Part shown: positions 1-4,588 of the stretch, one piece after another
Position numbering within the stretch: position 1 is the first letter of the stretch
How the letters are laid out: every line of letters begins with the position of its first letter
Source: a virus
Taxonomy: Duplodnaviria; Heunggongvirae; Uroviricota; Caudoviricetes
DNA: 4,588 nt
IMG/VR virus record: IMGVR_UViG_2671180903_000007
Direction: 5' to 3' (one strand)
Position numbers and translations under genes: made by a program
The notes under the pieces: generated by a model
Databases searched by the model: none
What the model saw: only the letters and a program-made list of their open reading frames with translations
Told to the model about the DNA's origin: nothing

Positions 1-2
1 CG

Positions 3-767
3 GTGGTACTGGCAACCCGTAAATACGTGGATGATGAAGTCCTGGAATTAAAGCTGTATGTGGATGACCAGATGAGAAACCACATTGCCGCACAGGATCC
101 TCATACCCAGTATGCGCAGAAACATAATCCGACATTTACCGGAGAACCAAAAGCGCCGACGCCTGCCGCAGGAAATAACACCACGCGGATTGCGACCACT
201 GAGTTTGTTCAGGCCGCTATTACCGCTCTGATTAACGGTGCGCCAGCCACACTGGACACACTGAAAGAAATTGCCGCGGCCATTAACAATGACCCGAAAT
301 TCAGCACCACCATTAACAATGCGCTGTCAGGTAAGCAGCCACTGGATGAGACGCTGACTCATTTGAGCGGAAAGGATGTTGCTGGTCTTCTCGCATACCT
401 TGGTTTGGGAGAAGCGGCAAAACGGAATGTAGGTAACGGGCAAAACCAAATTCCGGATATGGCGGCATTTGCCAGTTCACTTTCATCAACGGGTTTTCAA
501 AAACTCCCTTCAGGTCTGATTATTCAGTGGGGTATTGTCAGTGGAGCATCAAACTATACGGTGACTTACCCGGTAACATTCCCAAATCGTTCACTTGCGC
601 TGTTGGCTGTGCCACATACAACGTCGGTGGCTGGTATATCTGCAATGGGCATAGCGAACTGTTCTGATATCAGCAAATCACAGTTCTATATAATTGTTGG
701 CGGTATATCTCAGGGAGAAATTGTCAAACATGAAAGGTCCTGTTTTTGGGTAGCAATCGGTGTATAG
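3..767 (+). CDS. Phage tail fibre protein, 5'-partial: constant region fused in frame to variable C-terminal cassette Sv1
   Basis: ORF is open from the window edge, so the gene continues upstream. It contains the tail-fibre-type motif TTEFVQAAITALINGAPATLDTLKEIAAAINND. The segment from codons LGLGEAAKRNVG (nt ~399 onward) to the stop at 765-767 is duplicated as a mirror copy on the minus strand at 2860-3222. This is the pattern expected for a constant region joined to an invertible variable tip, as in Mu S or P1 gene 19. Confidence 0.85.
   Translation: MVLATRKYVDDEVLELKLYVDDQMRNHIAAQDPHTQYAQKHNPTFTGEPKAPTPAAGNNTTRIATTEFVQAAITALINGAPATLDTLKEIAAAINNDPKFSTTINNALSGKQPLDETLTHLSGKDVAGLLAYLGLGEAAKRNVGNGQNQIPDMAAFASSLSSTGFQKLPSGLIIQWGIVSGASNYTVTYPVTFPNRSLALLAVPHTTSVAGISAMGIANCSDISKSQFYIIVGGISQGEIVKHERSCFWVAIGV
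388..413 (+). other. Crossover site L for a Gin/Hin/Cin/Pin-type invertase (26 bp, imperfect dyad)
   Basis: TTCTCGCATACC-TT-GGTTTGGGAGAA fits the recalled half-site pattern of gix/hix sites (TTnnnnnAAACC / GGTTTnnnAnAA around a central dinucleotide). Identity with the other two copies begins exactly at the central TT (400-401). The site lies inside the tail fibre reading frame. The consensus is from memory, not from a search. Confidence 0.6.
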
Positions 768-775
768 GTATATCT

Positions 776-1171
776 ATGATTTATTTCTCAAAATCGACTA
801 ATGGTTTTTTCTTTGATGGTATAAACAGCGACATGCCTGCTGACATTGTTGAGATAAGTACAGACTTATACAATGAATTAATTGCCGGACAGCAGGAAGG
901 GGGTAAATTAATCACGTCAGATGAAAATGGTTTACCGGTACTGAAATCTCCGGCGATTGATTATGTCGCACGTGCTGAAAATCAGCGAATGCAGTTACTT
1001 GCTCATGCCGATAATGTCACAGCTGACTGGCGGGTGGAATTAATGCTTGGTGATATCAGCAGTACAGATAAAGAAAAACTATCTGCCTGGATGGATTACA
1101 AAAAAGAAGTAAAAGCCGTCGACACTTCGACGGCTCCTGAGATTAGCTGGCCTGAGTTACCGGAGGCGTAG
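776..1171 (+). CDS. Tail fibre assembly protein (Tfa chaperone, type 1), cognate to Sv1
   Basis: C-terminus VDTSTAPEISWPELPEA matches the conserved Tfa C-terminal motif (P2 G / Mu U / lambda Tfa family). It lies immediately downstream of Sv1 on the same strand. Start is placed at ATG 776, preceded by AGGT 6 nt upstream; the ORF track start at 746 is a TTG inside the fibre gene. Confidence 0.8.
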   Translation: MIYFSKSTNGFFFDGINSDMPADIVEISTDLYNELIAGQQEGGKLITSDENGLPVLKSPAIDYVARAENQRMQLLAHADNVTADWRVELMLGDISSTDKEKLSAWMDYKKEVKAVDTSTAPEISWPELPEA

Positions 1172-1586
1172 GCCATTCAATATCTGGCGCACCGGAAGTA
1201 TCGACCAGCTCCAGTGTGTCCAGATAATCCAGCCACAAATTATATTGCGCCAGTTCCTCACCTTTCAGACGACCAATAGCCGCTTTACCGGGCCATTGCT
1301 TACTGTTCATGTATTCGTTAGCCTGGTTAATTAGTAGCTGTCTTTCTGATTCAGTAATTTCAATAAGCTCTTCATGCGTGGGTGGAGGAATATCTGCCCA
1401 CGCAGGCAGCCCATCATCTCCGGCAATACGGATTTTTCCTTGTGGCGGTTCAGCCATAAACTCACTGATAATATTTTGATTCACCTCCTTTGCATCTGAT
1501 AAATCCCATCCCTCTGATTTATATTTATCAATCATATCCACAGGGAAAAAAGCATTATGCCTTGCGCTATAAACATATTCGTTCAT
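1143..1586 (-). CDS. Tail fibre assembly protein (Tfa chaperone, type 2), cognate to Sv3
   Basis: C-terminus LVDTSGAPDIEWPTPPVTQAS is the same Tfa motif. It is convergent with the type-1 Tfa gene and overlaps it by 29 bp at the 3' ends. Start is placed at ATG 1586; an alternative GTG at 1595 would give a protein beginning MIY, like type 1. Confidence 0.8.
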   Translation of the reverse strand: MNEYVYSARHNAFFPVDMIDKYKSEGWDLSDAKEVNQNIISEFMAEPPQGKIRIAGDDGLPAWADIPPPTHEELIEITESERQLLINQANEYMNSKQWPGKAAIGRLKGEELAQYNLWLDYLDTLELVDTSGAPDIEWPTPPVTQAS

Positions 1587-1634
1587 ATAAATCACCCTGA
1601 ATAAAATTACTCACCAACAGCCCACCAACTGTAA

Positions 1635-1660
1635 TTCATCGATACATTGGTTTGGGAGAA
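1635..1660 (+). other. Crossover site M (third copy, direct orientation relative to L; outer half-site atypical)
   Basis: 1647-1680 is identical to 400-433 (34 bp, starting at the central TT). The outer half TTCATCGATACA (1635-1646) is not a dedicated half-site; all but its last base belongs to the inverted-repeat arm, being the Sv3 C-terminal codons read on the opposite strand. Confidence 0.4.
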
Positions 1661-2020
1661 GCGGCAAAACGGAATGTAGGAACAGGGGAAAATCAGATAC
1701 CGGATATGGCTTCTTTTGCCAGTGGTGATGGATGGATGAAATTACCCAACGGTAAAATCCTGCAATATGGTCGAGGTGCGGTTACGCCGACATTATCGAC
1801 GCAAACAATGAGAATTACATTCAGCATCCCTTTTCCTAAAAAAGTGGACTGCGCCATGCTTACCCATTCTGGTGATGGTGGTGCGCCTTTAGGCGCTGGA
1901 CGGGGATTCGTGATGACTGCAGAAGGTCCAACACTAACCGGTTTTAATTCCGCTTACAGAACTGCATCAACCAGTTCCACAGTATCGATGAATTACAGTT
2001 GGTGGGCTGTTGGTGAGTAA
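1652..2020 (+). CDS. Silent alternative tail-fibre C-terminal cassette Sv3 (no start of its own)
   Basis: Begins with the same GEAAKRNVG crossover-encoded peptide as Sv1 and then diverges (GTGENQIPDMASFAS vs GNGQNQIPDMAAFAS) into an unrelated ~110-aa tip. It is in the same frame relative to the crossover centre as Sv1. The M in the ORF track is a TTG codon inside the crossover sequence. It is followed on the same strand by Tfa type 2. Confidence 0.6.
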   Translation: MGEAAKRNVGTGENQIPDMASFASGDGWMKLPNGKILQYGRGAVTPTLSTQTMRITFSIPFPKKVDCAMLTHSGDGGAPLGAGRGFVMTAEGPTLTGFNSAYRTASTSSTVSMNYSWWAVGE

Positions 2021-2040
2021 TTTTATTCAGGGTGATTTAT

Positions 2041-2484
2041 ATGAACGAATATGTTTATAGCGCAAGGCATAATGCTTTTTTCCCTGTGGATATGATTGAT
2101 AAATATAAATCAGAGGGATGGGATTTATCAGATGCAAAGGAGGTGAATCAAAATATTATCAGTGAGTTTATGGCTGAACCGCCACAAGGAAAAATCCGTA
2201 TTGCCGGAGATGATGGGCTGCCTGCGTGGGCAGATATTCCTCCACCCACGCATGAAGAGCTTATTGAAATTACTGAATCAGAAAGACAGCTACTAATTAA
2301 CCAGGCTAACGAATACATGAACAGTAAGCAATGGCCCGGTAAAGCGGCTATTGGTCGTCTGAAAGGTGAGGAACTGGCGCAATATAATTTGTGGCTGGAT
2401 TATCTGGACACACTGGAGCTGGTCGATACTTCCGGTGCGCCAGATATTGAATGGCCTACGCCTCCGGTAACTCAGGCCAGCTAA
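2041..2484 (+). CDS. Tail fibre assembly protein type 2, second copy (identical to 1143-1586)
   Basis: Identical 150-aa translation in the ORF track. ATG 2041 is preceded by AGGGTGA; an alternative GTG lies at 2032. It sits directly downstream of Sv3 on the same strand. Confidence 0.8.
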   Translation: MNEYVYSARHNAFFPVDMIDKYKSEGWDLSDAKEVNQNIISEFMAEPPQGKIRIAGDDGLPAWADIPPPTHEELIEITESERQLLINQANEYMNSKQWPGKAAIGRLKGEELAQYNLWLDYLDTLELVDTSGAPDIEWPTPPVTQAS

Positions 2485-2851
2485 TCTCAGGAGCCGTCGA
2501 AGTGTCGACGGCTTTTACTTCTTTTTTGTAATCCATCCAGGCAGATAGTTTTTCTTTATCTGTACTGCTGATATCACCAAGCATTAATTCCACCCGCCAG
2601 TCAGCTGTGACATTATCGGCATGAGCAAGTAACTGCATTCGCTGATTTTCAGCACGTGCGACATAATCAATCGCCGGAGATTTCAGTACCGGTAAACCAT
2701 TTTCATCTGACGTGATTAATTTACCCCCTTCCTGCTGTCCGGCAATTAATTCATTGTATAAGTCTGTACTTATCTCAACAATGTCAGCAGGCATGTCGCT
2801 GTTTATACCATCAAAGAAAAAACCATTAGTCGATTTTGAGAAATAAATCAT
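2456..2851 (-). CDS. Tail fibre assembly protein type 1, second copy (identical to 776-1171)
   Basis: Identical 141-aa translation in the ORF track. Mirror of 776-1171 under p to 3627-p. Confidence 0.8.
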   Translation of the reverse strand: MIYFSKSTNGFFFDGINSDMPADIVEISTDLYNELIAGQQEGGKLITSDENGLPVLKSPAIDYVARAENQRMQLLAHADNVTADWRVELMLGDISSTDKEKLSAWMDYKKEVKAVDTSTAPEISWPELPEA

Positions 2852-2859
2852 AGATATAC

Positions 2860-3222
2860 CTATACACCGATTGCTACCCAAAAACAGGACCTTTCATGTT
2901 TGACAATTTCTCCCTGAGATATACCGCCAACAATTATATAGAACTGTGATTTGCTGATATCAGAACAGTTCGCTATGCCCATTGCAGATATACCAGCCAC
3001 CGACGTTGTATGTGGCACAGCCAACAGCGCAAGTGAACGATTTGGGAATGTTACCGGGTAAGTCACCGTATAGTTTGATGCTCCACTGACAATACCCCAC
3101 TGAATAATCAGACCTGAAGGGAGTTTTTGAAAACCCGTTGATGAAAGTGAACTGGCAAATGCCGCCATATCCGGAATTTGGTTTTGCCCGTTACCTACAT
3201 TCCGTTTTGCCGCTTCTCCCAA
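2860..3222 (-). CDS. Silent inverted copy of the Sv1 tail-fibre C-terminal cassette
   Basis: 120-aa translation identical to the C-terminal 120 aa of the 3-767 ORF. No constant region is upstream of it on the minus strand; the apparent start is TTG inside the crossover sequence. Confidence 0.6.
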   Translation of the reverse strand: MGEAAKRNVGNGQNQIPDMAAFASSLSSTGFQKLPSGLIIQWGIVSGASNYTVTYPVTFPNRSLALLAVPHTTSVAGISAMGIANCSDISKSQFYIIVGGISQGEIVKHERSCFWVAIGV

Positions 3223-3239
3223 ACCAACGTTTTATGGAA
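3214..3239 (-). other. Crossover site R (inverted relative to L)
   Basis: Plus strand reads TTCTCCCAAACC-AA-CGTTTTATGGAA. Read on the minus strand it is TTCCATAAAACG-TT-GGTTTGGGAGAA, with the same centre and inner half as L and an outer half that differs from L. Inverted-repeat identity ends exactly at the central dinucleotide (3226-3227). Confidence 0.6.
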
Positions 3240-3328
3240 TCGGTTAAATATGATGTTGAAAGAAGGGAATGTCCTAGTATTGATTGTTAGATAAAAATGG
3301 AAAGTGCTGATTGTAACGGTATATTTTA

Positions 3329-3364
3329 AGATGGTAACACCAAATGGTGCTACCATCTTTATTA
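3329..3364. terminator. Candidate intrinsic terminator hairpin
   Basis: AGATGGTAACACC-AAAT-GGTGCTACCATCT forms a 13-bp stem with one mismatch and a 4-nt loop, followed on the plus strand by TTTATTAG. It lies just below the stop of the minus-strand 105-aa ORF (3366-3368) and downstream of the fibre cassette on the plus strand, so it could act in either direction. Confidence 0.4.
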
Positions 3365-3365
3365 G

Positions 3366-3683
3366 TTATCTGTTCCTTCTGAGGATTCCGCTACTCCCTT
3401 GTGTTGTAGGGTTTAATTTTTTCCAATAATGATAACCTTGTGATGTAATCCTTAGAGAGGCAGTATCTACACTCCATCCATCATTACTTTCAGGAGAACC
3501 ATCGAAGATTACCTTTCCTGTAAGATACCCATCGTCATGCAGAAAGGCGATATATCCATAAACTTCTTTTAAATCACCAATTTCATTGACTAGGCGTTCC
3601 CACGCTTGAACAGTGATTCTCTCTGGATAGGCTTCGACAAAATATTTCAGTGTGGTAGTTTTTTTATTGATATCGATGTTCAT
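3366..3683 (-). CDS. Hypothetical protein, 105 aa, solitary gene in an AT-rich island (possible moron)
   Basis: ATG at 3683-3681 with AGGA about 8 nt upstream on the minus strand. Hand-counted GC is about 32-38% here versus about 60% in a hand-counted stretch of the invertase gene. I cannot assign it to a family by eye. Confidence 0.65.
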   Translation of the reverse strand: MNIDINKKTTTLKYFVEAYPERITVQAWERLVNEIGDLKEVYGYIAFLHDDGYLTGKVIFDGSPESNDGWSVDTASLRITSQGYHYWKKLNPTTQGSSGILRRNR

Positions 3684-3881
3684 CAGATTTTCCTTTTATT
3701 GAGGTCAACCTATCTTACCATACTTAATTGTTTCACATGGGAATGCTAAGTGGGCTATGTATCCACTATCAGTAAATATTCTTATCCAGCAAGATTACTG
3801 TAACTGAGAGCCCCATAGCCTTGTCCGCTTGTACATATATAGATAATTCTGTGTCATTATTCTGTTTTTATAGGGATTTTT
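3684..3881. promoter_or_regulatory. Divergent AT-rich intergenic region, presumed to hold promoters for the 105-aa ORF and the invertase
   Basis: 198-bp non-coding gap between divergently oriented start codons. A possible -10 GATAAT at 3842-3847 and -35-like TTGTCC at 3821-3826 have suboptimal spacing. An AGGGA ribosome-binding site lies 9 nt before ATG 3882. Promoter positions are not established. Confidence 0.3.
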
Positions 3882-4475
3882 ATGCGTATAGGTTATGTTC
3901 GTGTATCAACAAATGACCAGAACACGGAATTGCAGCGTAACGCGCTCGAGTGCGCAGGATGTGAGCTGATTTTTGAGGATAAAATCAGCGGCACGAAGTC
4001 CGACCGACCGGGACTGAAAAAACTGCTCAGAACATTATCAGCAGGTGACACTCTGGTAGTCTGGAAGCTGGACCGGCTGGGGCGTAGTATGCGGCATCTG
4101 GTCATTCTGGTTGAGGAGCTGCGCGAACGCGGCGTTAATTTTCGCAGCCTGACAGATGCTATTGATACCAGCACGCCGATGGGGCGTTTTTTCTTTCATG
4201 TGATGGGTGCTCTGGCTGAAATGGAGCGAGAACTCATTGTCGAGCGGACACGCGCCGGACTGGAAGCGGCCAGAGCCAAAGGGCGTATTGGTGGCAGACG
4301 TCCGAAGCTCACCGCGAGTGAGTGGGAACAGGCAGGACGGTTGCTGGCTGCGGGTGAATCACGTCAACGCGTGGCGCTGATTTTTGATATTGGCCTGTCC
4401 ACGCTCTATAAAAAATTCCCCTCATCAGCGGCAAAGAATAAATTGTGTCATCCCTTAGCCAACCGGGACAAATAG
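3882..4475 (+). CDS. Serine DNA invertase, Gin/Pin/Cin/Hin family (small serine recombinase)
   Basis: N-terminus MRIGYVRVSTNDQNTELQRNAL with the catalytic Ser at codon 9 (3906-3908). Central motifs DTLVVWKLDRLGRS and MGRFFFHVMGALAEMERELI, and a C-terminal helix-turn-helix region (GLSTLYKK), are near-identical to Gin of Mu and Pin of e14 as I recall them. Confidence 0.95.
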   Translation: MRIGYVRVSTNDQNTELQRNALECAGCELIFEDKISGTKSDRPGLKKLLRTLSAGDTLVVWKLDRLGRSMRHLVILVEELRERGVNFRSLTDAIDTSTPMGRFFFHVMGALAEMERELIVERTRAGLEAARAKGRIGGRRPKLTASEWEQAGRLLAAGESRQRVALIFDIGLSTLYKKFPSSAAKNKLCHPLANRDK

Positions 4476-4534
4476 CCTGACATCTCCGGCACAACTGAAA
4501 ATATCACTCACCCATTAACCACGGAGTTAAACGG

Positions 4535-4588
4535 ATGAGTGACTATCATCACGGCGTGCAGGTGCTGGAGATTAACGACGGCACCCGC
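4535..4588 (+). CDS. Tail sheath protein (P2 FI-like), 3'-partial, first 18 codons
   Basis: MSDYHHGVQVLEINDGTR closely matches my recollection of the N-terminus of the P2 FI major tail sheath protein. GGAG lies 9 nt upstream of ATG 4535. The ORF runs off the window end. Confidence 0.6.
   Translation, partial: MSDYHHGVQVLEINDGTR

Follow-up and report, generated by a model that had tools for sequence, protein, structure and literature searches.

Invertible tail fiber segments of the Mu G type, including their versions in P2-like prophages, are switched by a Gin-like serine invertase acting on inverted 26-bp sites, each composed of two imperfect 12-bp inverted half-sites on either side of a 2-bp center, and fuse a constant N-terminal part of the fiber alternately to one of two variable C-terminal parts, each with its own Tfa chaperone. 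The 4,588-bp stretch of Caudoviricetes DNA analyzed here in full (IMG/VR record IMGVR_UViG_2671180903_000007; hereafter the window) has the same organization and is a standard Gin/Pin-type invertible tail fiber segment of a P2-like Escherichia coli prophage. Unlike the Mu G segment, it carries 1,247 extra bp in which the variable part Sv1, the chaperone genes Tfa1 and Tfa2, and the 3′ end of the second variable part, Sv3, are mirrored; it has a third, hybrid crossover site (M) in addition to the outer sites (L and R); and inversion between L and R is predicted to no longer alter the expressed fiber. The underlying switch is an already known, ordinary P2-like, Gin-type system. The mirrored structure, or foldback, is most likely a private oddity, i.e., a one-off recombination accident or an assembly artifact, and not a new type of switch.

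By direct string comparison, positions 400 to 1645 are the exact reverse complement of positions 1982 to 3227 over 1,246 nt. Identity between the arms is lost at 399/3228 and at 1646/1981, the latter enclosing a unique core of 336 bp (1646 to 1981). The identical 1,246-bp arms within 400 to 3227 and the 336-bp unique core described in the initial annotation, which had been made from the sequence alone, were thus borne out to the base. A repeat search returned the arms as 397 to 1650 and 1977 to 3230, with three mismatched end positions included. Chance cannot account for a perfect inverted repeat with arms of this length. The arms have their outer ends (400 and 3227) at the central dinucleotides of sites L and R, and each arm contains Sv1, Tfa1, Tfa2, and the final 12 codons plus stop of Sv3, a content already proposed and now seen both in the open reading frames (ORFs) and in domain scans. 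Only one new junction exists in the window, at 1645/1646 within site M. The other boundary that had been listed as an arm-core junction, 1981/1982, is ordinary contiguous Sv3 and not a true second junction. The elements of the foldback and its immediate left flank are as follows.

1 to 399, plus strand: 3′ end of the constant part of the tail fiber (gpH-like) gene; ORF 3 to 767 in the frame of position 3, open at the window start.
388 to 413: site L, TTCTCGCATACC-TT-GGTTTGGGAGAA, central dinucleotide at 400-401; best 26-mer in the half-site scan.
400 to 767, plus strand: Sv1 copy A, variable tail fiber C terminus (Gp53-like_C, E = 2e-14), identical to the Sv1-on state of E. coli PK5074.
776 to 1171, plus strand: Tfa1 copy A, tail fiber assembly chaperone of Sv1 (Caudo_TAP, E = 1.8e-24; RefSeq WP_001624293 in relatives).
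1143 to 1586, minus strand: Tfa2 copy A, chaperone of Sv3, inverted; mirror of 2041 to 2484 (Caudo_TAP, E = 1.8e-30).
1607 to 1645, minus strand: truncated copy of the Sv3 3′ end, 39 nt (12 codons plus stop), exact reverse complement of 1982 to 2020; the left arm stops here.
1635 to 1660: hybrid site M, TTCATCGATACA-TT-GGTTTGGGAGAA, in the same orientation as L.
1646 to 1981: unique core, consisting of the center and right half of site M followed by the 5′ 110 codons of Sv3.
1652 to 2020, plus strand: Sv3, the alternative variable C terminus (Gp53-like_C, E = 2.2e-13).
1967 to 1992: quasi-site Q, within Sv3, which reads TTCATCGATACT-GT-GGAACTGGTTGA when reverse complemented.
2041 to 2484, plus strand: Tfa2 copy B (ORF, Caudo_TAP), present in relatives.
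2456 to 2851, minus strand: Tfa1 copy B, mirror of 776 to 1171.
2860 to 3227, minus strand: Sv1 copy B, silent and inverted, mirror of 400 to 767.
3214 to 3239: site R, TTCTCCCAAACC-AA-CGTTTTATGGAA, central dinucleotide at 3226-3227; second-best 26-mer, inverted relative to L and M.

Both halves of the structure could be traced to a known prophage. Positions 1 to 1645 match E. coli PK5074 (NZ_CP072802), a genome in the Sv1-on state, without a difference, and positions 1647 to 4588 are identical to the PK5074 genome in its Sv3-on state. Deletion of 400 to 1646 gives a 3,341-bp Sv3-on sequence with 7 differences from strain 5444 (NZ_CP103515), and the same deletion combined with inversion between the site centers gives 0 differences from PK5074 over the 3,341 bp. 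Both parents are therefore two natural states of one known prophage, and the earlier description, in which an incomplete Sv1-on copy is fused head to head with an entire Sv3-on copy, holds at the level of single bases. The best E. coli matches (99.4%) likewise span 3,341 bp, i.e., 4,588 minus 1,247. Near-identical prophages were found in the Sv3-on state (H1 to H3, L001, and L013 to L015) and in the Sv1-on state (H5 to H7 and L002 to L004), with breakpoints at the site centers in either case; the presence of both orientations among near-identical prophages indicates that the switch is active.

The foldback itself was found nowhere else. Of 5,426 complete E. coli genomes, not one contained 80% or more of the window at a single location, the criterion used for the whole-window searches, and the same search of 50,697 phage records and 72,556 plasmids recovered no foldback, only canonical spans of ~3.0 to 3.3 kb. 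A probe for the junction gave no spanning match in the complete E. coli genomes, where alignments begin at position 1635 because site M aligns to the normal site L, and the junction pattern was not found in IMG/VR, the GTDB representative genomes, or the JGI metagenomes. Nor did the E. coli genomes contain the reciprocal junction (left half of L plus right half of Q). When Sv3 and Sv1 as separate proteins were looked up by exact match, only canonical loci were among the matches listed. Among the related loci, a comparison of the type suggested by the initial annotation, the norm is a single canonical two-cassette segment, with each cassette present at most once, in either orientation, in all 24 loci read. 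Two longer relatives of 3.7 to 3.9 kb (H15 and H22), considered as candidate multisite forms, turned out to be ordinary two-cassette segments in which another partner cassette is present. The anatomy of the foldback, its two parental sequences, the position of its junction, and its absence from the collections searched are thus all matters of direct observation.

Sites L and R stood out clearly in the half-site scan, with scores of 34.4 and 30.3 versus 5.3 for the next best sequence. They share the right half GGTTTGGGAGAA and fit the site pattern tabulated for the invertible prophage tail fiber segments of EC958 (PMC4134206). Site M, in contrast, is a composite created by the foldback and a third, predicted crossover site: its left half derives from the 3′ end of Sv3, i.e., from quasi-site Q, while its center and right half come from a genuine site. 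M has a left half ending in ACA, whereas the natural half-sites here and in EC958 (PMC4134206) end in ACC or ACG. The right breakpoint coincides with the TT center of site L, which is the invertase crossover point, and the sequence diagnostic of the junction is GATACATTGGTTTGGG. With the register fixed by the junction, Q and L agree in 13 of their 26 bases, TAC..T.GG at the center among them; counting both strands, the canonical sequence has 6,632 26-mers, and Q lies in the top 0.4% of these by this measure (binomial tail, 0.005). BLAST placed M on L, and the left half of L on Q. The parental sequences have in common short microhomologies at the junction, ATAC on the left and TGG on the right.

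One base of the junction, A1646, occurs in neither parent, the Q parent having T and the site L parent C at this position. Several sources were considered for it. Polymorphism was discarded, as all 12 relatives checked carry the window's base, which is that of the Q parent, at the position equivalent to 1981. An exchange between Q and L, a shifted cleavage register, an ATAC-mediated switch, and fold-back priming from AA-3′ all predict T or C at 1646. Hairpin opening (P nucleotides) or ligation of a dA tail would yield the A but are unsupported in this system, and dA-tail ligation also leaves the positions of the breakpoints unaccounted for.

The position of the join, with the crossover point on one side and a site-like sequence on the other, indicates a sequence-directed event and points to aberrant strand exchange by an invertase. 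We give about an even chance to junction M having been made by the prophage's own serine invertase, through recombination of a genuine site (L or R) with quasi-site Q. There is a reported precedent in the related Cin invertase, for which Iida and Hiestand-Nauer are said to have described, in 1986 and 1987, low-frequency recombination at quasi-sites. By such an event an ordinary two-cassette segment would have gained a private partial inverted duplication. The duplication would need two copies of the segment in opposite orientations, on sister chromosomes or replicating phage genomes, and an actively switching prophage could supply such oppositely oriented copies after replication. Two routes can be envisaged. 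In the first, Q and L would be exchanged directly between two copies. In the second, M would be created by inversion in cis of Q with either L or R, ~330 bp away, and a homologous crossover in the 336-bp core with a canonical sister copy would follow. The enzyme behind the exchange, the sequence of its steps, and the standing of the foldback, either the strain's established genotype or a rare molecule picked up in the assembly, are inferences.

A number of observations weigh against an invertase origin. Conservative exchange predicts GATACT-(G/T)T-GG while the window reads GATACA-TT-GG, which leaves A1646 unexplained. The center of Q is GT and that of L is TT, and mismatched centers normally stop ligation by serine recombinases. 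As a pseudo-site in the half-site scan, Q ranked only 14th of 3,316, and since M and the reciprocal junction were seen nowhere else in the collections searched, use of Q finds no support there. In addition, the invertasome formed with Fis and the enhancer confines wild-type invertases to intramolecular inversion (PMC3798978). This restriction disfavors a one-step exchange between copies and makes the two-step route more plausible; the alternative to the one-step exchange, however, requires two events.

A technical artifact is a serious, if somewhat doubtful, competitor to the invertase. In this case, a culture of mixed orientation would have given rise to an in vitro chimera, or to the merging or patching of contigs, and the duplication would be carried by no cell. 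Forde et al. (2014; PMC4134206) described spurious alternative-orientation contigs at prophage tail fiber segments, the same type of locus, in long-read assemblies and warned that integrating such contigs leads to artifactual duplications in phage regions. An artifact would also fit with the foldback not having been found in any other sequence searched, with the perfect arms and a remainder identical to a known genome, and with the lone aberrant base lying exactly at the junction, where polishing presumably could not correct a raw-read error. Alignments of opposite-orientation reads would, moreover, be expected to break at the site center, and a split-alignment tool could cut there. On the other hand, a chimera arising from random ligation or shearing must break within ~1 nt of the crossover point (~1e-3), and its other end must hit a 13/26 look-alike of L (~4e-3). 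The 4-base ATAC microhomology is too short for template switching of the polymerase chain reaction type, which in any case predicts C at 1646. As for assembly software, both graph and overlap assemblers should need reads that contain the junction, which presumably cannot be built from the four natural junctions alone. Short-read contigs of relatives stop 35 nt from the site center, and a naive joining of such contigs was rejected because they end at the window equivalent of 1682 and not at that center. A reasonable middle position is that the assembly captured a real but rare recombinant molecule.

Draft genomes of relatives do break at the segment. The contigs of L020 and L021 end at locus position 6041 and that of L022 ends inside Tfa2; the end in L020, at the window equivalent of 1682, is the inner edge of a 34-nt repeat common to the 5′ ends of Sv1 and Sv3. 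Contig breaks of this kind are the usual mark of a mixed-orientation population in short-read data.

A break-induced or replication-based rearrangement that involves no strand exchange at Q appears improbable to us. It would start from a break at L, for instance after aborted cleavage by the invertase, or from a stalled fork, followed by microhomology-primed synthesis on an opposite copy or by fold-back priming. The ATAC and TGG microhomologies common to both parents would suit this scenario, as would A1646, an untemplated or miscopied junction base being typical of error-prone joining, and the right breakpoint, which would retain two bases of the 3′ overhang of the invertase-cleaved right half. 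The specific products predicted, however, were not seen, i.e., GATACT-TT-GG by fold-back priming from AA-3′ and GATACC-TT-GG by an ATAC-mediated switch. A version with a single parent needs a second junction that is by chance a perfect invertase product, and the likeness of Q to L over the whole 26 bp is left unexplained. A Min- or shufflon-like multisite system that evolved through selection of the third site and mirrored cassettes was, like a real duplication and a chimeric assembly, among the origins put forward in the initial annotation and is very improbable: the three sites do have identical centers and right halves in both orientations and allow four formal isomers, but the extra DNA brings no new cassette, with only Sv1 and Sv3 expressible, the arms have not diverged at all, the left half of M is unlike any natural half-site here, and no such arrangement occurs in the 24 related loci or in any of the genome, phage, plasmid, and metagenome collections searched.

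In the window as it stands, Sv1 copy A is in frame with the constant part and would thus be the expressed form, and Sv3, not joined to the constant part, is predicted to be silent; Sv3 comes into frame with it only after removal of 400 to 1646. Both fusions are open, with 254 (Sv1) and 256 (Sv3) amino acids from the window start. The counterpart of the constant part in relatives is a 397-amino-acid "phage tail protein" encoded downstream of gpI. With R oriented opposite to both L and M, enumeration gives four inversion isomers of the 4,588-bp form, three of which are predicted from the sequence to express Sv1 and one Sv3. Inversion between L and R would flip only the core and leave Sv1 fused to the constant part, as had been anticipated, and inversion between M and R would also leave Sv1 expressed. 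Reaching the Sv3-on state would take two inversions, L with R and then L with M, or M with R and then L with R. Deletion between any pair of directly oriented sites would remove exactly 1,247 bp and restore the canonical 3,341-bp segment, and one such deletion product is identical to PK5074. The duplication creates no new protein variant, since all four isomers offer only Sv1 or Sv3.

The right flank of the foldback contains the following features.

3366 to 3683, minus strand: orf105, encoding a 105-amino-acid conserved hypothetical protein, between site R and the invertase gene and outside the foldback.
3882 to 4475, plus strand: serine DNA invertase of the Gin/Cin/Pin/Hin type, 197 amino acids, Ser9 present (Resolvase and HTH_7 domains).
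4535 to 4588, plus strand: start of the tail sheath gene (FI), matching the annotated sheath coding sequences of L001 and L002.

Enzymes of this family are small serine recombinases in which a catalytic N-terminal domain, with its nucleophilic serine near residue 9 or 10, is followed by a C-terminal helix-turn-helix. The invertase is predicted to be intact. It has both domains (Resolvase, E = 2.9e-52; HTH_7, E = 1.1e-12), its stretch MRIGYVRVSTNDQ holds Ser9, and it closely matches Mu Gin (PDB 3UJ3; E = 8.5e-94, aligned residues 1 to 184) as well as phrog_125, "DNA invertase." The Fis-bound recombinational enhancer of such switches usually lies in the 5′ part of the invertase gene, and given the high N-terminal protein similarity to Gin, a Fis enhancer in cis is plausible here. 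L001 and L002 (99.4 to 100% matches to the window) have a P2-like gene order: V-W-J-I-H, the tail fiber assembly genes, and FI-FII-E-E′-T.

orf105 was found between site R and the invertase gene in every P2-like relative read, a type of position at which P2-like phages carry accessory cargo genes. It had no Pfam, PHROG, or PADLOC match. The gene lies in a stretch of low G+C content (3230 to 3880, ~36% versus ~50% in the flanking DNA). A promoter and terminator scan of 3200 to 3950 gave nothing above shuffled background; directly downstream of orf105, at 3328 to 3359, there is a 15-nt inverted repeat with a 2-nt loop (AAGATGGTAACACCA / TGGTGCTACCATCTT), which the terminator scan did not call.

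Some further observations concern the relatives. In complete genomes in the Sv3-on state, RefSeq annotates the tail fiber gene as a pseudogene "missing C-terminus" accompanied by a separate gp53-like coding sequence, and pseudogene-type annotation is seen at 2574 to 3773 in L001, 74 to 1495 in L023, and 74 to 1273 in L024. The L001 call looks like an annotation artifact of the invertible segment, because the constant part and Sv3 are in frame in the Sv3-on form derived from the window, which differs from L001 at 7 positions. The whole Sv1-Tfa1-Tfa2-Sv3 module is also present in a Mu-like prophage (L018), and in five loci (L005, L006, L009, L023, and L024) Sv3-Tfa2 is accompanied by another chaperone cassette (a 200-amino-acid Tfa, annotated as tfaE in L023). 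The same cassettes occur in different prophage backbones (L005, L006, L009, L016, L018, and L022 to L024), and they appear to have been swapped between the invertible segments of unrelated phages. One prophage, L012, is truncated in the constant part at ~5839 (window equivalent, ~110), with a portal gene ~0.5 kb further on, and looks like a rearranged or decayed prophage.

We regard it as rather unlikely, and advance it only tentatively, that the foldback is real and heritable, the invertase having acted at a quasi-site to make a third usable site and duplicate the cassette pair in one step. If this were so, the window would be an intermediate caught in the act between a two-site Gin-type switch and a multicassette Min-type system, with a switch biased 3:1 toward one receptor specificity and self-healing by site-specific deletion. 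It would also be a natural case of off-target invertase action, with a bearing on the origin of multicassette host range switches and on the fidelity of these enzymes in vivo. If the foldback is an artifact, it would serve as a caution: duplicated, perfectly palindromic insertions can be left by phase-variable prophage segments in assemblies that are otherwise base-perfect, and in annotation they then spread as extra tail fiber and chaperone genes.

Comparison with the systems already described places the window as follows. Like the EC958 case (PMC4134206), it involves the same kind of locus, both orientations in the population, and the risk that the alternative orientation is built into the assembly. 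Unlike in EC958, where the spurious sequences were separate contigs, the foldback is internal, and its junction combines the crossover point with a site look-alike, which a merge artifact does not predict. The e14 P segment with its Pin invertase is similar in its cassettes, an identical 122-amino-acid Sv3 with Tfa2 being present in an e14-like locus (L005) next to icd and with a 184-amino-acid invertase; e14, however, is another prophage backbone, with TfaE and Collar as the partner cassette and no duplication. Quasi-site (cixQ) recombination by P1 Cin similarly joins a genuine site to a sequence of limited homology to give a hybrid site, with the homology concentrated around the crossover point. 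The events of Iida and Hiestand-Nauer reportedly took place in cis, as inversions or deletions, and the central dinucleotides reportedly matched or had been converted, while the window has a duplication that needs two copies, centers of GT versus TT, and an adjacent base that matches neither partner. Finally, like p15B Min and the R64 shufflon, the latter driven by the tyrosine recombinase Rci and not by a serine invertase as in the window, the foldback has more than two crossover sites in both orientations and several isomers. Min and the shufflon are, however, conserved designs with distinct cassettes, whereas the third site here flanks a duplicate.

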